DNA of 64,000 bases, from contig VBAH01000017.1 in NCBI GenBank assembly GCA_005884685.1, positions 147,152 to 211,151 of the forward strand, given 5' to 3'. Position 1 is the stretch's first letter. Each line of letters starts with the position of its first letter. The DNA is from Alphaproteobacteria bacterium. Lineage in GTDB: Bacteria > Pseudomonadota > Alphaproteobacteria > Rhizobiales > Xanthobacteraceae. Made by a program: the position numbers and the translations under genes. Under the pieces are notes generated by a model. The model was not told where the DNA came from and ran no database searches. It saw only the letters and a program-made list of their open reading frames with translations. This document shows, one piece after another, positions 1,996 to 34,743 of the stretch.

Positions 1996-3647
1996 AGTCC
2001 TTTGATTAATCCCGCGTCGATCAACAGCCGGTTGAACCGGCGCGCCTCGGCGCCGCCATTGCAGCGATAGAACAGTCCGGCGCAACGCTGCAGGATCTTC
2101 TTCTGCTCAGCGAAGGACGGATCGAGCGGGATGCCGGCCGCCTCGAGCACGACCAGCGGCAAGTAGGGCGCGTCGAGCGCATTCACCGCAGAGGACAAGT
2201 CACGCGGCGTGAAGTTGATTGCGTTGACGGCGTAATAGGTCATCAGAAAACGCGGATCGGCGGCCGCGATGCGCCGCCTCAGCATCGAGTCGTCCTGGTC
2301 GGGATCGATCAGGTTGCGGGCAAAATACGGCTGGTGGTCGCCGAAGCGCACCAGCAGAAACCGCTCGTCGGGGAACTCGTTCTTCAGGCGCGCAACGAAC
2401 GCCCGATAGTCGACCGCGCTCAGATGCTGGCGCCGCAGGTACTCGTCGACGTCGGCGCGGTTGCCGGGATCGCGCCACTCGGGTGCGAGATCGGGGCGGA
2501 AGCGGAAGGTCCAGGGAAAATGGTTCTGCGCGGTGTAGACCAGCAGAAACAGCGGAGCCTTGCCGCGCTCTTTCGCGATCGTCGCCGCCGCCTTGTCGAA
2601 ATAGAACGAGTCGGGATCGAGAAAATTCGCTCCGAGCGCCTCGGAATCGAGAAACTGTTGAATGCCCGCGCTCGCCTGGAAATGCCGCGCGCTCAGGAAC
2701 GCGCCATACATCGGGTAAAGCGTGAAGGTCTTGTAGCCGCACTTGCGCAACGTGTGCGGCAGGCCGCGCTCGACCCGTCCCGCCGCGATGCGCGTGACGA
2801 AATCCGCAAATCGCCCATACGAGCGCGCCGAGAGGCCGGTCAGCACGTTGTACTCGGTGAACCAGCTCGGGCCCCCGGCCCCTTCGACCATCAGGCTGCG
2901 TTGCGCGCCGTCATCCGACTTGAAGTGCGCGCCGTAGCCGGCCGGCACCTTCACTCCGGGCACCGCGCGGATATCGAAGCTCGACTCGTCGAACACCATG
3001 ACGATGTGCGGCGGCTTTCCCACCGTGCATGGCGCGGCCGCCGCAGCGGCGAGTTGTTCGGTAACCGCGGCGTCCGATTCCAGCACGCCACGCGTGATGA
3101 GGTCGCCCATCGCGGTGACCCCGGAGCGCGTGAACTTTGAGAAATAGTTCTCGCCGTAGAACTCCTCCCACGGGTCACTCGGGAACGCGAGCGCCAGTCC
3201 AACCAGTCCGACGAGGCAGACGGAGCCGGCCGCCGCCGCCATGCGCCGACGAATGCGAAACGGCTCAAGGTACCAGGCCAGGATCAGCGTGAGAATCAGG
3301 AGGGCGCCCGCGACGGCGGCCTTCACGTCGAGAGACGGAAAAACCCTAAGCACAAACGAGACCGTATCCCGGTCGATGATCATCAGATCGATGAAGTTCA
3401 CCGTCATCAGCAGCACATCGTGCTTGAACCGCGAAACGAGAATGAGAAGCACGAGCCAGGCAAGCGATATGGCAGCCGCCACCGTTGGGCGGCGTAGCAA
3501 CGCGATCCAGCAAAAGTTGAAGAAGCCCCAGGAGAGCAGAAACGCGAGCTTCGGCACTACGGCCGATTCGGTCACGATCAGAATGGCCAGCGCCGCAAGA
3601 TGAAGGAGAACCAGCAACGCCGTACGTCCGAGTTGGCCTCGTCTCAT
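1992..3647 (-). CDS. Membrane-anchored sulfatase/LTA-synthase-like (alkaline phosphatase superfamily) protein
   Basis: Several N-terminal TM helices followed by a sulfatase-type domain (PHIVMVFDESSF..., NHFPW). Start trimmed to MRRGQLGRT at 3647; the maximal ORF reaches 3758. Confidence 0.65.
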   Translation of the reverse strand: MRRGQLGRTALLVLLHLAALAILIVTESAVVPKLAFLLSWGFFNFCWIALLRRPTVAAAISLAWLVLLILVSRFKHDVLLMTVNFIDLMIIDRDTVSFVLRVFPSLDVKAAVAGALLILTLILAWYLEPFRIRRRMAAAAGSVCLVGLVGLALAFPSDPWEEFYGENYFSKFTRSGVTAMGDLITRGVLESDAAVTEQLAAAAAAPCTVGKPPHIVMVFDESSFDIRAVPGVKVPAGYGAHFKSDDGAQRSLMVEGAGGPSWFTEYNVLTGLSARSYGRFADFVTRIAAGRVERGLPHTLRKCGYKTFTLYPMYGAFLSARHFQASAGIQQFLDSEALGANFLDPDSFYFDKAAATIAKERGKAPLFLLVYTAQNHFPWTFRFRPDLAPEWRDPGNRADVDEYLRRQHLSAVDYRAFVARLKNEFPDERFLLVRFGDHQPYFARNLIDPDQDDSMLRRRIAAADPRFLMTYYAVNAINFTPRDLSSAVNALDAPYLPLVVLEAAGIPLDPSFAEQKKILQRCAGLFYRCNGGAEARRFNRLLIDAGLIKGL

Positions 3648-6588: not shown

Positions 6589-7071
6589 TTAAGATATTTC
6601 TGCCATTTCGAGCGACGCTCTACAAAATTCAATTATGTCGAGTTGTGCTTTCCATTGTTGATTTCCTCGCTCTCCATAAAGCAGGATTTGAGGCTTGTAG
6701 TATTTGATGCCGCCGACTTGTCTCCGGCCCACTGCTAGTACGCCGTCTGCAGTAATAAACTCGATCTTTTGGGCGTGAATTATCTTGTTGCAGGATTCTC
6801 TGAATACAAGTGCTCGCTCCGAGCTACCAAGGGGTTCAAAAAGCAAACCGCAACTCAAGTCCGGCCTATGCGGCAGCGCCTTCCGAGCGCGCTCTTCTAC
6901 TATTCGTAGCATCCCCGCGATGCTCAAGATCAGGTGCTGAACATTTGCGCGAAAATGACGCTCCTCTACTGCCGCCAGAACGCGTCGGTACTTTGCGTCG
7001 TAACGACTGTGGTAAAGGCGCGATCTGGACCAGGAATCTGCGAAAGCGCTTTGCTGGCAAGAAATGTGCAC
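6589..7071 (-). CDS. Hypothetical protein in a low-GC segment (orphan, possibly frameshifted)
   Basis: 160-codon ORF with a GTG start. The local sequence is visibly AT-richer than its flanks. No domain recognised. A 59-codon upstream frame (6966-7145) starts with GTG overlapping the ilvH stop. Confidence 0.45.
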   Translation of the reverse strand: MHISCQQSAFADSWSRSRLYHSRYDAKYRRVLAAVEERHFRANVQHLILSIAGMLRIVEERARKALPHRPDLSCGLLFEPLGSSERALVFRESCNKIIHAQKIEFITADGVLAVGRRQVGGIKYYKPQILLYGERGNQQWKAQLDIIEFCRASLEMAEIS

Positions 7072-7144
7072 AGCAGCTCATAGACCTGCAAAGTGAGTTC
7101 GTCATAGTCGAATTCGTATCCTTGCCTTCCTTCGCGAGGGCTCA

Positions 7145-14376: not shown

Positions 14377-14473
14377 GTAGGGCGGGCAAAGCGTAGCGTG
14401 CCGGCCCTGCCGGTTGCGGCAGGCGCACATAGGAAGAGGCGGGCACGGCGCAAGTGCGCCTTTGCCCGCCCTA
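14377..14473. repeat. REP-like inverted repeat, GTAGGGCGGGCAAAGCG family (copy 2)
   Basis: Arms GTAGGGCGGGCAAAG / CTTTGCCCGCCCTA flank about 65 bp that contain a nested hairpin. Confidence 0.8.
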
Positions 14474-14490
14474 GGGCAGTCACAGTTAGC

Positions 14491-30194: not shown

Positions 30195-31055
30195 ATGTTG
30201 CGAGACAAAGACGTTTTCGAGGCGGCAAAACGCCGTTCCAGGAAGCACGACGGCGTCGAAGACCCAGCGCCCGCCGGCAAGATCGGTGCCAAGGAATTCG
30301 AGAAGCAGCTCGGCAAGCTGCAGGCCGAGCTCGTGCGCCTGCAGAACTGGGTGCAGGCCAAGAAAGCGCGCGTCGTCGTGGTGTTCGAAGGCCGCGACAC
30401 CGCCGGCAAGGGCGGCGTGATCAGCCGGATCACCGAGCGCACGAGCCCGCGCGTCTACCGGCACGTGGCGCTGCCCGCGCCCTCCGACCGCGAGAAGACT
30501 CAAATCTACATGCAACGTTACATCGCGCAATTTCCCGCCTCCGGTGAGATCATCCTGTTCGACCGCTCCTGGTACAACCGCGCCGGAGTCGAGCACGTGA
30601 TGGGTTTCTGCAGCGACGAGCAATATGAGCGGTTCCTGCAGCTGGCGCCGATCGTCGAGCGCGAGATGATCGTGCGCAACGGTATCATCCTGCGGAAATA
30701 TTTTCTCGATGTCAGCCAGGACGAGCAGCGCCGCCGCTTCGAGGCGAGAATCAAGGAGCCGGTCAAGCACTGGAAGCTGAGCCCGATGGACACCGAGTCG
30801 GTGCGGCGCTGGTGGGACTACACGGCGGCCTACCAGCGCATGATCGAAGCGACGCACACGCCCGACGCGCCCTGGCACATCGTGCCGGCCGACGACAAGC
30901 GCCGCGCCCGGCTGAACCTGATCCGCCACCTGCTCGACAGCATCCCGTACAAGAAGGTGGATATCGACCTGCCGAAAATTCCCAAGGCCCAGCCGCGGCC
31001 CAAGGGCGCTGCGCGCGATATCGAGGCCGGACAGGCGATCCCGCAGCACTATTAA
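30195..31055 (+). CDS. ppk2: Polyphosphate kinase 2
   Basis: ...VVVFEGRDTAGKGGVISRI...FDRSWYNRAGVEHVMGF... is the PPK2 signature. Confidence 0.92.
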   Translation: MLRDKDVFEAAKRRSRKHDGVEDPAPAGKIGAKEFEKQLGKLQAELVRLQNWVQAKKARVVVVFEGRDTAGKGGVISRITERTSPRVYRHVALPAPSDREKTQIYMQRYIAQFPASGEIILFDRSWYNRAGVEHVMGFCSDEQYERFLQLAPIVEREMIVRNGIILRKYFLDVSQDEQRRRFEARIKEPVKHWKLSPMDTESVRRWWDYTAAYQRMIEATHTPDAPWHIVPADDKRRARLNLIRHLLDSIPYKKVDIDLPKIPKAQPRPKGAARDIEAGQAIPQHY

Positions 31056-32749
31056 GTGCGCAACGGCATCACCTGCGGCCTGTTCACCGTCTCCGCCGGG
31101 CGAGCGCTGCTTTCCTGATATTTCCTGATCGCGGCGCGCGCATTGAACAGAAGGCGTTCCCGGCCCATCCGCTCGGCGAGGGCCGACGACTGGATCGAGC
31201 GCAGCACGCTCGGGTTGAGCGCCGCGAGCCACACCGTGATCCCTTGTTCGGTCATGCGCCGCTCGCCGTCGAGCATCATCTGCAGGGCGGAATATTCGAG
31301 GTCGGGAACGCGGCTCATGTCCACGGCGAGCACGCGCGGCCGATACTTGGCGACGAGCGCCCAGATCTGCTCTCCGACCTGCTGGGCATTGGCGAAAAAC
31401 AGTCTCCCTTCAGGACGCACGATCAGCAGCCCCTCGAAGGTTTCGTCATCCGGATGTTCGGGCGACAACGGGCGCAACACGTCCGCGCCGCGCTTGCGGC
31501 CGATCACGTAGACCTTCGAATTGGCGACCTGGCTGGTAAGTCCGATCAGCGACAAAGCAATCGCCACGACAATGCCCTGCAGCGTGCCGAAGATGAGGAC
31601 GCCGGCAAAGGCGGCGAGCGCCCAGGTGAACTCCATCGTGCGGATCTTGCGGATCGACATGAATTCGGCGGGATCGACCAGGCCGACCGAATAGACGATC
31701 ACGATGGCCGCGAGCACCGCCTGCGGCAGCAGGCCGAGCAGCGGCGCGAGCAACAGCATGGTGGCGACCGCGGCGCCCGCCGTCACCAGCGAGGCCTTCT
31801 GCGTGCGGCCGCCGACCGCCCGCACCACGGCGGTCTGTGACGTGCCGCCGCCCGCCGGCATCGCGCCGAAGAACGCGCCGGCAAAATTCGCCGCGCCGGT
31901 CGCCAGCAACTCGCGGTTCGGCTTGATCGGCGGGTCCGTCTGCTTGGCAAACGCACGGCCGGCGGCGATCGTTTCGGTAAAGCTCATCAGCGCGATGCCG
32001 AGCGCGCCGGGCAGCAACTGCTCGATCAGGCCGAGGCTCGGCAGCGTGATCGCGGGGAGCGATTGCGGAATGACGCCGACCGTTCCGACGCCGAGCGCGC
32101 CGAGGCCGAACATGAAGGACGCCGCAATGCCGGCGCCGACCACGACGAGCGGCGCGGGCGAGTGCGGCCACAGCCGCTCCATGACCAGCAGTGCGAGCAG
32201 CGCCGCAAGGCCGACGGTCAGGGTGATCAGGGATGTCTCCGGCACGTGATGGAGCATGCTGAGGATGTCGCGGAAGAAACCCTCCTTGGTGATGTGGATG
32301 CCGAGCAGCTTCGGCACCTGATCGAGCACGATCACCAGGCCGATGCCGGCCTTGAAGCCGGTGAGCACCGGCGTGGAAATGAAGTTGGCGACAAAGCCGA
32401 GGCGCAGGACCGATGCGGCGACGAGCAGCGCGCCGGTCAGCGCGGTGAGCGTCGCGGTCGCGACGATCAGCTTGCCGGGGTCGGCGTCCGGCACCACCAA
32501 TGCGAGCTCCGTGCCGGTGAGAATGGCGAGCGTCGTGGTCGAGCTGACGCTGAGCACGCGTGACGTGCCGAGCAGTGCGTAGACGACCATCGGCACGAAC
32601 GCGGTGTAGAGCCCGACGCTCACGGGCAGTCCCGCGACGGTCGCATAGGCCATCGCCTTCGGCAGCACCACGGCGGCCGCGGTCAGGCCGGCGATGATGT
32701 CGAAGCGCAATGCCGGCGCCGGTGATGAAGCTTCGAGCGCATGCGCCAT
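31052..32749 (-). CDS. SulP-family anion (sulfate) permease with C-terminal STAS domain
   Basis: 565 aa, about 11 TM helices, with a C-terminal STAS region (...VLAVDMSRVPDLEYSALQMMLD...). Confidence 0.9.
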   Translation of the reverse strand: MAHALEASSPAPALRFDIIAGLTAAAVVLPKAMAYATVAGLPVSVGLYTAFVPMVVYALLGTSRVLSVSSTTTLAILTGTELALVVPDADPGKLIVATATLTALTGALLVAASVLRLGFVANFISTPVLTGFKAGIGLVIVLDQVPKLLGIHITKEGFFRDILSMLHHVPETSLITLTVGLAALLALLVMERLWPHSPAPLVVVGAGIAASFMFGLGALGVGTVGVIPQSLPAITLPSLGLIEQLLPGALGIALMSFTETIAAGRAFAKQTDPPIKPNRELLATGAANFAGAFFGAMPAGGGTSQTAVVRAVGGRTQKASLVTAGAAVATMLLLAPLLGLLPQAVLAAIVIVYSVGLVDPAEFMSIRKIRTMEFTWALAAFAGVLIFGTLQGIVVAIALSLIGLTSQVANSKVYVIGRKRGADVLRPLSPEHPDDETFEGLLIVRPEGRLFFANAQQVGEQIWALVAKYRPRVLAVDMSRVPDLEYSALQMMLDGERRMTEQGITVWLAALNPSVLRSIQSSALAERMGRERLLFNARAAIRKYQESSARPAETVNRPQVMPLRT

Positions 32750-32927
32750 GGGCGGTCAGTGGAACTTGCCGGCCCCCATTGGCCGGCGGACGGCCGCAGG
32801 TTGGGCTTGCCCGACAGCCCGGGGCTATTGCGCCTAGGTGTAATCGGGTGCGGGGCGCGGCGCGGTAAGGTGCGTGCGCGCGGCGACCCCGGGCTGTTTG
32901 CTAGCCCGCTGCCGCAAACTCAGCCTG

Positions 32928-32968
32928 TTCCCTCCCCCCTTGTGGGGGAGGGTTAGGGAGGGGGGTCG
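32928..32968. repeat. Hairpin repeat CCCTCCCCC-CTTGT-GGGGGAGGG plus TTAGGGAGGGGGG tail
   Basis: Perfect 9-bp stem. The 'PSPLVGEG' spurious translation is typical of Rhizobiales intergenic repeats. Confidence 0.6.
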
Positions 32969-33065
32969 CGTAGACTCGCTGCCTCATCGCCTCATCGATC
33001 AGTCGACCCGTCGGTATTGAAGCGTCCTGGCACCGTCGCTGCGCCAAGCGACCTTTCGAGTCGAC

Positions 33066-33094
33066 TTGACAATATTCCTTTGAGAACAGATAGT
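33066..33094 (+). promoter_or_regulatory. Candidate sigma-70 promoter TTGACA-N17-GATAGT
   Basis: Perfect -35 hexamer, 17-bp AT-rich spacer, 4/6 match at -10. No CDS lies downstream; it faces the hairpin-dense region and ssrA. Confidence 0.5.
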
Positions 33095-33099
33095 GAACA

Positions 33100-33530
33100 C
33101 AGCGCCCTTTCCTGCTCTCCACCGCCGTCATGACGCGGGGGGCGAGCGGGAAAGGCCGGGGGACCGGGCCGGAGAACAGGCCCAGACTCCTTCGGGGCGG
33201 ATGCGGATAGCCCGCGTTCGCCGTTGGTCGGCCGATATCGGGCAAGCCGGGCATCAGCCGGTGGAGCGCCGGGAGGCGCAGCGGTTCGGTGGCAAGGCCT
33301 CGCAAGCCTTGAGATCACCGCCCGCGCGCGTCTCGGGACGGGTCTCGCAAACCCGACCCTGCAAGGCGCGTTCGGTGTCCGGCGTAACGCACCGGGCACC
33401 ACAGGGGCGCCGTAGCGCAGCGCCCTGGCGCCTCCCGGCGCTCCATTTCCCTCTGCGGAGGGTGAGGAAAAACGGGACAGGGCAACCCGCGCCCTCGTCA
33501 ACACGGGCCGCGGAGCGTTGGCTTGGCGAG
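33100..33530 (+). ncRNA. Candidate structured non-coding RNA of unknown class (alternative: cluster of REP hairpins)
   Basis: No credible ORF. A 12-bp stem pairs 33106-33117 with 33144-33155. A 17-bp perfect long-range helix pairs 33263-33279 with 33428-33444 and encloses four hairpins. G-U pairs appear only if the RNA is read on the + strand. Confidence 0.4.
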
Positions 33531-33535
33531 AGGCC

Positions 33536-33610
33536 GTAGGGCGGGCAAAGCGCCAAGCGCGTGCCCGCGTCATTTCCGGGGGCGGCGGGTACGCTTCGCT
33601 TTGCCCGCCC
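33536..33610. repeat. REP-like inverted repeat, GTAGGGCGGGCAAAGCG family (copy 3)
   Basis: Arms GTAGGGCGGGCAAAGCG / CGCTTTGCCCGCCC. Confidence 0.8.
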
Positions 33611-33666
33611 GACGAAGGGTTCCGACGGGCTCTTTTTTCGTCAACCTTCCTCGCCTATATTGGCGT

Positions 33667-34050
33667 TGCCGTCCGCAAGGCCGGCTATGGCGATAAACGT
33701 GCGTTGGAATAAACCTATCGGACCCGGGGGCAGTACCCGGCGGCTCCACCAATTCCAGGAGTCAGGAAACCGGCATCAGGGATCAGGACGCAAAGCTTCT
33801 GCCTGATACCCTGACGCCTGATGCCTGATCCCTGATCACGGGGCCGAAACAGGATCGACGAGGGCGTAAAGGACGTGCTTTTGCCCGGTATGGTACCGCC
33901 GTGATGGACCAATCCATAGTTGCCAACGACAACTATGCTCCGGTAGCGCAGGCCGCGTAAGCGGTTTGTAATACCGATACTTAAAGTCCTGACGGGATAA
34001 GCTCCGGCAGGCGGGGTTCGGAGGCACCTGGCAACAGAAGCCTCCACTTC
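33667..34050 (+). ncRNA. ssrA: Circularly permuted (two-piece) tmRNA gene: acceptor piece, excised spacer, coding piece
   Basis: GGAC-CCGGG-GGCAGTA-CCCGG-CGGCTCC-ACCA ends at 33751. GGGGCCG at 33840 pairs with CGGCTCC, including a G3-U70 pair. The tag frame GCC AAC GAC AAC TAT GCT CCG GTA GCG CAG GCC GCG TAA (33922-33960) encodes ANDNYAPVAQAA. CTATAT -10 at 33655-33660. Outer ends are accurate to about 15 nt. Confidence 0.88.
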
Positions 34051-34128
34051 ATTTCACGCTCCGCCTGAAACGTTTGGCGTTCCCGCGCGCGAAGCTTTAC
34101 ATTTCGCTGGTTGAGTCTCGAGGCAGCA

Positions 34129-34743
34129 ATGGCGGTCGACCACATCCGCTACGATCTGTTGACGCAGCAGGCGCTGCGCGCGGTGGTGCGCCGCGTGCTC
34201 GCCGACGTGGCGAAAACCGGTTTGCCGGGCGAGCACCATTTCTATGTCACGTTCGACACCCGCGCGCCCGGCGTGAAGCTCTCCGCGCGCATGCGCGAGC
34301 AGTACCCCGAAGAGATGACCATCGTGCTGCAGCACCAGTTCTGGGATCTCGCGGTGAGCGACGCGCATTTCGAGGTGGCGCTGTCGTTTTCCGGGGTGTC
34401 CGAGAAGCTTCACGTGCCGCTCGACGCGATCAAGGGGTTCTTCGATCCGTCGGTCCAGTTCGGGCTGCAGTTCGAGACGCAGGCCGAGGGTAAGGACGCG
34501 CCGGCGGAGAAGCCCGCCGCAGCGCCGATCGTCGAGGAGCCGAAAGCCGCAAAGCCGCGGCGCAAGCCGGTCGCAGTCGAGCCGGAGGCGCCCGCCGCCG
34601 TCGGGCCGGCCGAGCCCGCCAAGGCGGAGCCGAAGGCGCCCGCGCCTGCGCCCGTGCTGGTCGGCGGCACCGACAGGCCCGAGCCGGACAAGCCGTCCGG
34701 CGGCGCCGAGGTGGTGCGGCTCGACCGGTTCCGCAAGAAATAG
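34129..34743 (+). CDS. sspB: ClpXP adaptor SspB (alphaproteobacterial SspB-alpha type)
   Basis: ...LPGEHHFYVTFDTRAPGVKLSARMREQYPEEMTIVLQHQFWDLAV...FDPSVQFGLQFE... closely matches the Caulobacter SspB-alpha core, with a disordered Pro/Ala/Lys tail. ATG at 34129 has a GAGG RBS (TTG at 34111 is possible). Confidence 0.85.
   Translation: MAVDHIRYDLLTQQALRAVVRRVLADVAKTGLPGEHHFYVTFDTRAPGVKLSARMREQYPEEMTIVLQHQFWDLAVSDAHFEVALSFSGVSEKLHVPLDAIKGFFDPSVQFGLQFETQAEGKDAPAEKPAAAPIVEEPKAAKPRRKPVAVEPEAPAAVGPAEPAKAEPKAPAPAPVLVGGTDRPEPDKPSGGAEVVRLDRFRKK

Follow-up and report, generated by a model that had tools for sequence, protein, structure and literature searches.

A hairpin-dense element upstream of ssrA, probable member of an uncatalogued family of structured RNAs in soil Xanthobacteraceae

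We analysed a 64-kb stretch of DNA (hereafter the window, i.e., the whole stretch at its full length), in which a hairpin-dense region located upstream of ssrA very likely represents a genuine family of structured-RNA genes. Positions 33066-33523 of the + strand probably correspond to a complete gene, member of an uncatalogued family of highly structured non-coding RNAs, which would be transcribed independently. Around 100 related loci display a common architecture and, judging from these loci, the family belongs to soil Xanthobacteraceae, in the Bradyrhizobium-Rhodoplanes-Pseudolabrys lineage. With Bradyrhizobium, Rhodoplanes, Pseudolabrys, Afipia, and many uncultured relatives, the Xanthobacteraceae count among the most common bacteria of soil and, if our reading is true, this element defines a new class of large structured RNA in that lineage, 300-430 nt long, in which a five-way junction closed by a clamp is combined with a covarying pseudoknot. 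An earlier note on this DNA had already proposed a novel, promoter-driven structured RNA on the + strand, and this reading is supported by what we found on REP nature, conservation, and protein coding, three outcomes that the note had named as refuting it.

Architecture of the element and of its relatives

Reading and folding of the sequence both recover the 12-bp stem with one U.G pair that the earlier note had placed at 33106-33117/33144-33155. The long-range helix proposed at 33263-33279/33428-33444 is perfect over 18 nt, as an inverted repeat between 33262-33279 and 33428-33445. This helix, hereafter the clamp, has 17 bp in the window copy, spans 182 nt in all from arm to arm, and closes a five-way junction with four hairpins (H1 to H4), all of which lie, with their loops, where they had first been read. 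The parts of the window copy and its surroundings are as follows.

33066-33094, + strand: sigma70-type promoter (-35 TTGACA at 33066-33071, 17-nt spacer, -10 GATAGT at 33089-33094)
33084-33098, + strand: LexA-type direct repeat GAACAGATAGTGAAC, GAAC-N7-GAAC, overlapping the -10 hexamer and the start site
33101-33523, + strand: conserved unit, predicted to be transcribed, the family member proper, ~423 nt
33103-33158, + strand: 5′ domain hairpin, whose outer stem is the 12-bp stem above
33159-33261, + strand: three more hairpins, weakly conserved, linking the 5′ domain to the clamp; other members vary here or lack this part
33263-33279, + strand: clamp helix, 5′ arm GGAGCGCCGGGAGGCGC
33281-33325, + strand: junction hairpin H1, loop CUCGCAA at 33299-33305
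33326-33371, + strand: junction hairpin H2, loop CUCGCAA at 33344-33350
33374-33400, + strand: junction hairpin H3, loop CGUAACGCA (DNA CGTAACGCA, 33383)
33404-33426, + strand: junction hairpin H4, loop CGUAGCGCA (DNA CGTAGCGCA, 33411)
33428-33444, + strand: clamp helix, 3′ arm GCGCCUCCCGGCGCUCC, followed by a conserved A at 33445
33449-33462, + strand: hairpin S1, CCCUC-UGCG-GAGGG, with double changes at 6/6 pairs
33463-33478, + strand: purine-rich single-stranded linker UGAGGAAAAACGGGAC (family consensus ACGGAAAAAGGGA)
33479-33507, + strand: H-type pseudoknot, in which S2 is 33479-33483/33491-33495 and the loop CCCG (33486-33489) pairs with CGGG (33504-33507)
33510-33523, + strand: conserved 14-nt single-stranded 3′ tail GCGGAGCGUUGGCU, where family conservation stops
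33535-33614, no strand assigned: dispersed REP-like hairpin (GTAGGGCGGGCAAAGCG...CGCTTTGCCCGCCC), outside the family unit
33606-33638, + strand: imperfect GC-rich hairpin and T-run, inside the conserved ssrA upstream region

The unit 33101-33523 folds with an energy of -253.8 kcal/mol (z = -5.7). The apical CGCCGUCAUGACGCGG of the 5′ domain hairpin resembles a GCCGUCAUGACGCG motif found in four other members (L046, L063, L110, and L112), and in two others (L082 and L120) the distance from promoter to clamp is just 14 nt. The four loops of the window copy fall into two pairs (two CUCGCAA and two CGUARCGCA), and in the whole window the only hairpins carrying these loops are H1-H4 themselves.

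Relatives were collected by two scans. Scanning for the arm sequence revealed both arms (+ then -), 113-210 nt apart, in at least 47 genome loci, nearly all of them in Xanthobacteraceae-type MAGs and isolates, and an independent scan with the tail motif yielded ~50 additional arm-bearing metagenome loci; because both scans were keyed on sequences of the window copy, this sample of members leans to close relatives. Genomes carry from one to at least five copies, which are diverged paralogs (82-94% identical among the matches listed), and the window contains a single one. Carriers include the cultured Afipia sp. OHSU_II-C1 (L091), and L280, at about 220 nt, is one of the compact members. Across members, the clamp is a sequence-conserved 17-bp helix enclosing 76-210 nt. 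Four junction hairpins, as in the window copy, are present in 68 of the 91 distinct cores, with near-identical loops of 7-8 nt whose consensus is mostly YUCGCAA. The recurrent loops are YUCGCAA, GAUCGCAA, CGUAGCGCA, and UACGUCAYU: the 91 cores contain CUCGCAA 65 times and GAUCGCAA 32 times, and the H4 loop CGUAGCGCA recurs at the same position in L093 and L011.

The 3′ domain of the family consists of S1, the purine-rich linker, S2 with its pseudoknot, and the tail GCGRAGCGUUGGCU, to which the window copy conforms. A model (R1) built from 20 other members, window excluded, matches 33443-33523 over its whole length (positions 1-81 of 81) with 55.2 bits and E = 1.6e-13, a score that comes partly from the tail motif, itself also used for collecting the metagenome members.

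The element had been described as belonging to no recognised RNA class, and database searches agree with this. At gathering score, Rfam 15 returned tmRNA alone in the window and, for 18 further member loci, no family over the element; when the cut-off was relaxed to E = 10, it gave none for the element of the window or of L280, where the best sub-threshold matches are at chance level. A known RNA family is thus ruled out by Rfam 15 for the window, the 18 member loci, and L280. A plasmid or phage origin was also rejected: blastn against plasmids and phages gave no match, and a scan of viral contigs gave 84 arm matches, none of them with two exact copies (only exact partner arms were sought). 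The arm sequence is absent from searchable papers, and text searches with the loop motifs returned unrelated papers only. The alphaproteobacterial motifs of PMC1273637 are all already in Rfam.

Conservation at the RNA level

The 3′ domain was examined through a structure-aware parse and a 93-member Infernal alignment. With the reservation that shuffle-based statistics are inflated by the relatedness of the sequences, the covariation score of S1, S2, and the pseudoknot in this alignment is 0.369, against 0.179 ± 0.009 in shuffled alignments (0/500 reach the native value), and the complementarity of the native pseudoknot partners averages 4.91, against 4.10 ± 0.09 for permuted partners (0/5000). 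Slid controls give at most 0.110 for the same covariation score. Although the pseudoknot lies outside the model, its pair 117-188 is GC in 43 sequences and CG in 18. For the core, RNAalifold run on an unfitted MAFFT alignment of 20 compact cores recovered the clamp and the hairpins. The conservation and covariation in relatives, which the earlier note had named as a check, are both strong over ~100 loci. Each helix of the RNA, the pseudoknot included, shows compensatory substitutions, with double changes at 17/17 pairs of S1, S2, and the pseudoknot and compensatory changes at 18/34 core pairs. Within the clamp, the tail-selected sample shows double changes at positions 1, 3, 15, and 16, and position 10 is GC in 14, AU in 7, and CG in 3 sequences.

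The structure is also polarized. The wobble pairs had been read as G-U on the + strand, in agreement with the direction of the promoter, and this polarity extends to the family: the + strand fold is the more stable one in 88.5% of 96 members, with a mean difference of -9.2 kcal/mol (p = 4e-15), and the clamp wobbles are G.U on the + strand. In the window, the region 33095-33645 folds at -327.9 kcal/mol on the + strand (z = -8.5) versus -302.8 on the - strand (z = -5.6).

Two long open frames cover the element, a 148-aa ORF on the + strand (33093-33539) and a 193-aa ORF on the - strand, and in 76 of 91 cores two or all three of the + strand frames run without a stop, so that protein coding has to be considered. 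However, such frames are expected at ~70% G+C. Neither ORF has a Pfam match; no reading frame is conserved among relatives (91 cores); core lengths (76-210 nt) are unphased, with modulo 3 residues distributed 36/32/23, as are arm-to-tail distances; and substitutions track base pairing, not codons. We therefore reject protein coding, to which we attach a negligible probability, in line with the earlier view that the region holds no credible ORF. At present, these loci are annotated with Arg-rich "hypothetical proteins" of 100-200 aa, which are spurious, and MAG assemblies break at them, two points on which annotation would gain.

A DNA-level explanation deserves more attention. We regard it as unlikely, yet worth weighing, that the element is a REP/REPIN mosaic, similar to the BIMEs of E. 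coli, in which the inverted REP arms would be kept for a RAYT-type transposase or another DNA-binding protein, the RNA-like structure being a by-product. As in REP, REPIN, and BIME systems, the family has inverted palindromic units, is intergenic and multicopy, and often lies between convergent genes near other REPs. Each arm is palindromic (GCGCC-GGGA-GGCGC), the arm pair looks like a REPIN doublet, and a near-identical arm occurs in tandem REPIN-like arrays of a gammaproteobacterial MAG (L078). Copies usually sit between convergent genes, in REP-rich intergenic regions; true REPs adjoin the element and are inserted into it in L261, L286, L288, and L303. In some genomes it is multicopy with its copies at contig ends, breaking contigs in one Bradyrhizobium MAG. 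Finally, relatives lack the element at the same locus, and the sequence of the clamp's outer 8 bp is invariant, without covariation.

On the other hand, the observed copy number is low (one to at least five per genome) and the paralogs are 6-18% diverged. Conservation is not confined to the palindromes: it reaches well beyond the arms, into the promoter, 5′ domain, S1, pseudoknot, and tail, and the covarying pseudoknot counts against a mosaic because it has no DNA-level rationale. Across members, stems vary while loops stay conserved, the opposite of REP copying, and the strand asymmetry described above is strong. In some cases different species share the position of a copy: L071 and L090 have it after tatC, L027 and L035 after ureF. 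No transposase-like neighbour, RAYT included, was seen within 2.5-3.5 kb of ~105 loci; RAYTs are usually encoded elsewhere in the genome. The earlier note had asked whether H1-H4 were dispersed REP units. They do not look like high-copy REPs, with H1-H4 and the clamp occurring once in 64 kb; the adjacent hairpin at 33535-33614, for its part, is a REP, with further copies in the window at about 1920-1995 and 14377-14475. The family arm differs in sequence from Br-REP1 and Br-REP2 of B. japonicum (PMC5082802). If the structured-RNA reading is true, a clamp made from REP-like palindromes bears on the recruitment of selfish repeats into functional RNAs.

Promoter and genomic context

The promoter reported at 33066-33094 (TTGACA-N17-GATAGT), pointing into the element, holds up as the sole sigma70-like site in 32700-34150 (one found versus 0.2 expected), and it predicts a transcription start near 33101. 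It is conserved in the family: at least 24 of the 47 genome members have TTGAC(A/T)-N16-18-TAnnnT upstream and, under stricter criteria, a promoter is found in 18/83 members on the forward strand versus 3/83 on the reverse-strand control. This conservation is what suggests that the element is transcribed. Moreover, the similarity between paralogs of one genome is confined to the stretch that begins at the predicted start site and ends with the tail. Two of them (L057 and L076) are 93.5% identical over that interval, yet their promoter types differ.

A candidate LexA-type operator appears to overlap the promoter of the window copy, and a subset of the family appears to be wired to the SOS response. 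The motif GAAC-N7-GAAC, which we take to be the alphaproteobacterial LexA box, occurs once in the window, at 33084-33098; alone, this occurrence is weak because 1.6 matches are expected by chance. In the upstream regions of members, the box (or GTTC-N7-GTTC) is found in 8/83 cases versus roughly 0.5 expected. Other paralogs carry a TCCTATAGGA operator and a AAACTTATCC(C)CG motif.

A tie to ssrA, beside which the earlier note had placed the element, does not stand. In the window, the element is directly upstream of ssrA and co-oriented with it, and its 3′ domain shares its topology with small pseudoknot aptamers, which would suit a leader, precursor segment, or regulator of ssrA, or else a riboswitch-like 5′ leader of the downstream gene. 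However, two relatives with 85-86% identical SspB (L002 and L003) carry unrelated sequence upstream of ssrA; the comparison at this locus consists of these two, as the contigs of closer relatives (P0002, P0003, and P0009) end at or within ssrA. No tmRNA was found near the 46 other loci scanned (L046 has a tRNA ~4 kb away), other copies adjoin unrelated housekeeping genes, and ssrA has its own conserved promoter region. As for a riboswitch, the downstream gene is mostly convergent, no downstream gene family is conserved, and the riboswitch models of Rfam gave no match, even with the cut-off at E = 10. We consider any such leader highly improbable and reject the link to ssrA: the position of the element beside this gene is accidental. 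Close relatives lack the element at the ssrA locus, so that it comes and goes as a mobile or dispensable element would.

The same context raises another reading, in which the element would be no separate RNA gene and would act in cis, as a 3′-UTR element stabilizing, terminating, or insulating the upstream mRNA. Gene orientation favors it (upstream gene co-oriented in 27/34 cases, downstream gene convergent in 25/36), with the reserve that these calls depend on a GC3 heuristic for gene finding, and a stable 3′ pseudoknot with many hairpins would block 3′ exonucleases. Nevertheless, the element of the window cannot be the 3′ UTR of sulP, its upstream gene, because sulP is divergent from it. A conserved promoter stands between the upstream gene and the element, paralog similarity begins at the predicted start site, and a mere exonuclease block needs neither conserved loops nor a tail. 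This cis-acting role is therefore, in our view, quite improbable. All-against-all clustering of flanking ORFs revealed no conserved neighbour gene (reverse transcriptase, transposase, toxin, or Ro); the clusters obtained come from spurious ORFs of the element itself, from local synteny, and from short-chain dehydrogenases, which are ubiquitous.

The 3′ end of the transcript had been placed near the T-run at 33631-33638. This holds in part: the conserved unit already stops at 33523, and the T-run falls within the Rfam alpha_tmRNA match (33629-34048) and is common to the ssrA upstream region of L002, although it may still act in termination. There is no intrinsic terminator directly 3′ of the tail. 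The hairpin and T-run at 33606-33638 give weak terminator-like Rfam matches, the consensus terminator scan being silent there, and could possibly form the terminator of a primary transcript.

Proposed function and likeness to known RNAs

Sequence evidence makes an independently transcribed, stress-regulated RNA the most likely reading of the element. The sigma70 promoter would drive a ~420-nt RNA, under a LexA-type operator in the window copy. Acting in trans, this RNA would serve as a multivalent scaffold or decoy whose clamp and junction offer the same loop motif four times to a partner, protein or RNA, while the pseudoknot and tail would stabilize or define the 3′ end or offer a second binding site. 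Since different paralogs seem to be wired to different promoters, the RNA may accumulate under particular stresses, probably DNA damage for the window copy. The decoy mechanism itself, proposed from the repeated loops, is tentative, and we would not put it above a plausible minority view. If this reading is true, the family would offer a target for structure work, a new RNA-protein or RNA-RNA partnership on four identical loops, and a direct test of stress-specific paralog use within one RNA family.

Several known systems share part of these features. Like CsrB/CsrC and RsmX/Y/Z, the family would be a stand-alone, promoter-driven RNA with several hairpins sharing a short loop motif, a hairpin number that varies among homologs, and several differently regulated paralogs per genome. 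Unlike them, its loop motif is YUCGCAA instead of GGA, its hairpins stand inside a clamped five-way junction, and it adds a covarying pseudoknot and a conserved tail; the Rfam Csr/Rsm models do not match the element. The resemblance would be one of functional analogy. The cuckoo RNAs (CcsR1-4, sRNAs with CCUCCUCCC loops) are also multicopy in alphaproteobacteria and carry hairpins with one repeated loop motif, and their stress induction would be a further shared trait. However, they are ~80 nt long, versus 300-430 nt, with another loop motif and neither clamp nor pseudoknot. The sole CcsR1 match (18 bits for a gathering score of 65) lies on the opposite strand upstream of L280.

Bacterial Y RNAs (YrlA) and other tRNA-like modules resemble the family in having an effector module of several loops that is closed by a long terminal helix of conserved sequence. 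The Y RNA of Deinococcus is induced by DNA damage. The 7-nt loop C-U-CGC-A-A fits the pattern of tRNA anticodon loops (Y32 U33 NNN R37 A38), being the one expected for tRNA-Ala(CGC), and the clamp GGAGCGC...GCGCUCC-A resembles an acceptor stem with its discriminator. One could thus imagine a stress-inducible (here SOS-inducible) tRNA mimic, with the clamp as an extended acceptor stem and four mimics of the anticodon stem-loop. This idea takes its cue from the pattern of the loops, the two ends of the clamp, and the LexA-type box, and we hold it very unlikely. The element has no Ro-binding motif, no rsr or rtcB neighbour, and no detected mimic of a T-arm or D-arm, and ARAGORN and the Rfam tRNA and Y RNA models gave no match to it. 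If true, the mimic might be a decoy for a tRNA-directed enzyme or toxin (anticodon nuclease, PIN/VapC-type tRNase, or modification enzyme) or, alternatively, RNase P and RNase Z might excise a stable effector from it.

As in the preQ1-I, SAM-II, and guanidine-III riboswitches, a hairpin loop pairs with a downstream strand through an A-rich crossing strand (33496-33503 in the window copy). In contrast to these, the family has no co-oriented downstream gene and no Rfam match, and its pseudoknot is the 3′ module of a larger RNA.

Searches for targets and for further contacts within the RNA complete these results. The loop complement TTGCGAG is unenriched in the window (11 occurrences versus 15.8 expected), and no window site matches the tail complement with fewer than 2 mismatches. 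A switch between the tail and the 3′ arm (GGAGCGUU with GGCGCUCC) was rejected, as GAAGCG members keep the arm unchanged and covariation is unsupportive, and so was a kissing of the CGACAAUG loop with the UACGUCAYUG loop, which do not co-vary. The linker GGGA and the UCCC centre of the 3′ arm are reverse complements in 5 of the 17 variant members, the tested region overlapping S1.

The element and its relation to ssrA

Between sulP (minus strand, 31052-32749) and the tmRNA gene lies a 900-nt gap nearly devoid of credible genes. The promoter, the 5' stem, the long-range helix and the four enclosed hairpins that the earlier note had read by eye in this gap were all recovered:

33066-33094 (+), sigma70-like promoter TTGACA-N17-GATAGT, the sole such site in 32700-34150
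33106-33117 with 33144-33155 (+), 5' stem of 12 bp
33262-33279 with 33428-33445 (+), perfect 18-nt inverted repeat holding the 17-bp long-range helix, or clamp (arms 33263-33279 and 33428-33444)
between the arms (+), hairpins H1-H4, with loops CTCGCAA (twice) and CGTARCGCA (twice)
33535-33614, REP-like hairpin GTAGGGCGGGCAAAGCG...CGCTTTGCCCGCCC (window self-comparison)
33629-34048, alpha_tmRNA match (Rfam)
33659-34051, ssrA, two-piece alphaproteobacterial tmRNA gene (ARAGORN)

Hairpins carrying either loop occur nowhere else within the 64-kb window. The segment 33095-33645 folds at -327.9 kcal/mol on the plus strand (z = -8.5) vs -302.8 on the minus strand (z = -5.6). Rfam 15, run on the window at E up to 10, returned tmRNA only, besides weak terminator-like matches (anti-hemB, BjrC68) at 33606-33660, and none of its families matches the element.

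The earlier note had placed the region upstream of ssrA and proposed that the transcript could end near the T-run 33631-33638. A link to ssrA was not borne out, and conservation of the unit stops at 33523; the T-run may still terminate the transcript. Relatives were found via the downstream SspB protein, and the comparison rests on three loci, the contigs of closer relatives stopping at ssrA: L001, a near-identical strain, is 99.9% identical over 1379 nt and therefore adds no information, and L002 and L003 (SspB 85-86% identical) have unrelated sequence, and other neighbour genes, upstream of ssrA. ARAGORN detected a tmRNA in 0 of 46 other family loci, and a tRNA only in one (L046), about 4 kb off the element. 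The T-run and the sequence after it are common to the L002 ssrA upstream region and lie inside the Rfam tmRNA match; the corrected unit spans 33066-33523.

Other features of this locus were observed. An imperfect GC hairpin and T-run, then cgtcaaccttcctcgcctatatt, are kept upstream of ssrA (window 33606-33660; L002 3500-3550) and resemble a terminator or insulator that borders on the ssrA promoter. Within ssrA, an unusually long insert (33770-33840), CCTGAT-rich and partly palindromic, separates the two pieces of the permuted tmRNA; L002 and L003 have a shorter, different sequence there. In its sulP-proximal half, which must contain the sulP promoter, the intergenic region carries an 11-nt perfect inverted repeat (32814-32824 / 32887-32897) and other hairpins within 32804-32897.

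A family with a covarying architecture

Genomes, one per species, were scanned with the 17-nt arm as query, giving at least 120 stretches. Among the matches listed, 47 had both arms, plus then minus, 113-210 nt apart, nearly all in Xanthobacteraceae-type Alphaproteobacteria (Rhodoplanes, Pseudolabrys, Variibacter, Pseudorhodoplanes, Afipia, Bradyrhizobium and many MAGs); the other listed matches were single chance matches in other phyla. In viral contigs, each of the 84 matches had one exact arm match only, and plasmid and phage collections showed no similarity to the element.

Upstream of the arms, a hairpin domain and a TTGAC(A/T)-N17-TAnnnT promoter are conserved. This 5' domain is optional, because the promoter lies just 14 nt 5' of the clamp in two members (L082, L120). 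Conserved downstream are, in order, an A, the small hairpin S1, a linker rich in purines (ACGGAAAAAGGGA), a hairpin S2, whose loop pairs with a strand further downstream, and the tail GCGRAGCGUUGGCU. About 10 members have a second type of 3' domain. Directly 3' of both types recurs GGCTGTTTGA(A/C)AA(T/G)(T/C)GAATC (L010, L011, L030, L033, L037, L050, L098, L100, L115, L118, L280), which represents either a further repeat or an optional extension at the 3' end of the RNA.

Because the first scan had picked its matches by the arm, metagenomes were scanned with a linker and tail pattern. About half of the 120 stretches listed were chance matches in coding sequence; about 50 were family members with arms, both arms exact in 17, and a few had the 3' domain without the core (clamp and H1-H4). 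In these tail-selected members, the outer 8 bp of the clamp and positions 13-16 are almost invariant, whereas central pairs change in a compensatory manner (position 10: G:C 14, A:U 7, C:G 3), and double changes occur at positions 1, 3, 15 and 16. Hence, selection for pairing acts on the clamp, and selection on sequence acts in addition on its outer part.

All structure figures come from related sequences, and motifs of the window served to collect both samples. A covariance model of the 3' domain (R1), made from 20 other members with the window not included, matched window 33443-33523 over its full length (55.2 bits, E = 1.6e-13) and nothing else there significantly, its best non-significant match (E = 0.095) falling on a hairpin at 32925-32965. 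In the Infernal alignment of the 93 loci that R1 matches, paired cells make up 88.4% for S1 and S2, whose covariation score is 0.457, vs 0.222 +/- 0.011 when shuffled (0/500 reach 0.457) and at most 0.143 when slid. Double changes affect 12/12 of their pairs, and 17/17 with the pseudoknot, which is absent from R1 (pair 117-188: GC 43, CG 18; pair 113-193: CG 55, UA 5, GC 3). Pseudoknot complementarity, by a structure-aware parse, is 4.91 vs 4.10 +/- 0.09 when permuted (0/5000 reach it). As to the core, 20 compact examples were aligned with plain MAFFT, and RNAalifold recovered the clamp and hairpins from them, with compensatory changes in 18/34 pairs and the loop letters TCGC invariant. Four hairpins are present in 68 of the 91 distinct cores, where CUCGCAA (65) and GAUCGCAA (32) are the commonest loops. 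The plus strand, the direction that the earlier note had favoured, folds better than the minus strand in 88.5% of 96 members (mean -9.2 kcal/mol, p = 4e-15).

A predicted transcription unit and candidate control sites

Paralogs in one genome have only 250-340 nt in common, at 82-94% identity; between L057 and L076, similarity runs from the predicted start site to the tail, and the promoters are of different types. Strong sigma70-like promoters precede 18/83 members on the forward strand, vs 3/83 in the reverse-strand control. The neighbours are unrelated housekeeping genes (UreF, TatC, LigA, exonuclease III, transporters), with occasional synteny between species. The gene upstream mostly shares the element's orientation and the one downstream is mostly convergent, which counts against a 5' leader. 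A cis-acting role as a 3'-UTR would match this orientation bias; it is nevertheless improbable, as the gene upstream of the window copy is divergent and the promoter does not suit such a role. The ssrA-leader and riboswitch readings are contradicted by the unrelated ssrA-upstream sequence of L002 and L003 and by the usually convergent downstream gene. Neither core length nor arm-to-tail distance keeps a phase modulo 3, and no Pfam match was obtained for the window ORFs, which contradicts a protein-coding reading and agrees with the earlier note. Judged from sequence, the element is thus a predicted transcription unit, neither gene leader nor protein.

Overlapping the window promoter is a candidate LexA box of the alphaproteobacterial type, GAACAGATAGTGAAC (33084-33098); it is not significant alone, because 1.6 sites are expected by chance and the window has one. 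GAAC-N7-GAAC or GTTC-N7-GTTC occurs in 8/83 member upstream regions vs about 0.5 expected, some of the eight being mutually homologous. Between -35 and -10, a perfect palindrome TCCTATAGGA (L004, L076, L090, L097; partial in L027, L058, L063) is likely an operator for a dimeric repressor. In at least 13 members (L008, L011, L057, L093, L101, L229, L236, L251, L272, L287, L292 and others), AAACTTATCC(C)CG-N14-CTTATNT, some 118-123 nt 5' of the clamp, replaces the TTGACA-type promoter and is a candidate promoter or operator type. Paralogs appear wired to different signals, because their promoter-region motifs differ.

REP-like sequences and possible function

The earlier note had asked whether the hairpins are multicopy REP sequences. 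This holds for the last one, 33535-33614, the third copy in 64 kb of a dispersed family (GTAGGGCGGGCAAAGCG ... CGCTTTGCCCGCCCTAC; further copies near 1920-1995 and 14377-14475), and, as far as the 64-kb window goes, not for the core 33262-33445, which self-comparison finds once there. The hairpin at 32925-32965 is a second REP-like one (CCCTCCCCC-TTGT-GGGGGAGGG, then TTAGGGAGGGGGG), and in L046 its motif lies some 40 nt 5' of that member's clamp.

The main rival explanation, that the element is a mosaic of REP/REPIN-like sequences, is unlikely. The clamp arms are indeed palindromes, some MAGs have several copies of the element, which is gained and lost, and arrays of a nearly identical arm occur in a gammaproteobacterial MAG. 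However, the copies found per genome are few and diverged, the promoter, pseudoknot and tail are conserved outside the arms, loops are kept over variable stems, and the strands are asymmetric. The RNA-family and REP views may be historically connected, if the structured RNA arose from REP-like palindromes. The gammaproteobacterial array (L078, an uncultured MAG; 2523-3245 and 6819-7140) repeats a 122-nt REPIN-like unit 5.9 times in tandem; its arms, GTAGGAGCGCCGG(G/A)AGGCGCGA, are almost the alphaproteobacterial clamp sequence. In a few metagenome members (L261, L286, L288, L303), a REP doublet, CAAGTCGGGTTTACCCGACTTG + CGATCTCGGGTAAACCCGAGATCG, interrupts the 3' arm precisely at its UCCC centre, which suggests the loop of the local hairpin formed by this arm as a REP target.

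The RNA architecture is conserved, strand-specific and covarying, and the element has its own promoter, no coding frame and no fixed genomic partner. The arm sequence is absent from openly searchable papers, an earlier description under another name being possible, and published Bradyrhizobium REPs and sRNA surveys in the openly readable literature do not describe the element. On present evidence, the element is a new structured RNA family, in line with the novel structured RNA that the earlier note had proposed, with boundaries 33066-33523 and minus the ssrA link.

Such an RNA would act in trans, with the clamp and four hairpins sharing one loop motif as its invariant module. We tentatively favour a role in sequestering or scaffolding a protein or RNA partner, because this module has the design of a multivalent decoy or scaffold. 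CsrB/RsmZ, which are RNAs of that kind, likewise present one loop motif on several hairpins, and the alphaproteobacterial CCUCCUCCC-loop sRNAs also repeat one loop motif. The pseudoknot and tail might stabilise the 3' end or serve as a second site for binding. No support was found for simple antisense targets or for two candidate conformational switches. The anticodon-loop or YUNR U-turn pattern matches the 7-nt loops, and the clamp termini are reminiscent of an acceptor stem and discriminator; a tRNA-like reading of both is a lead of low probability. Three metagenome contigs (L241, L252, L278) carry a different structured-looking region with the same terminal GGGCGGAGCGUUGGCU, complementary to an upstream AGCCAACACUCC, which may be another RNA with a common tail motif.
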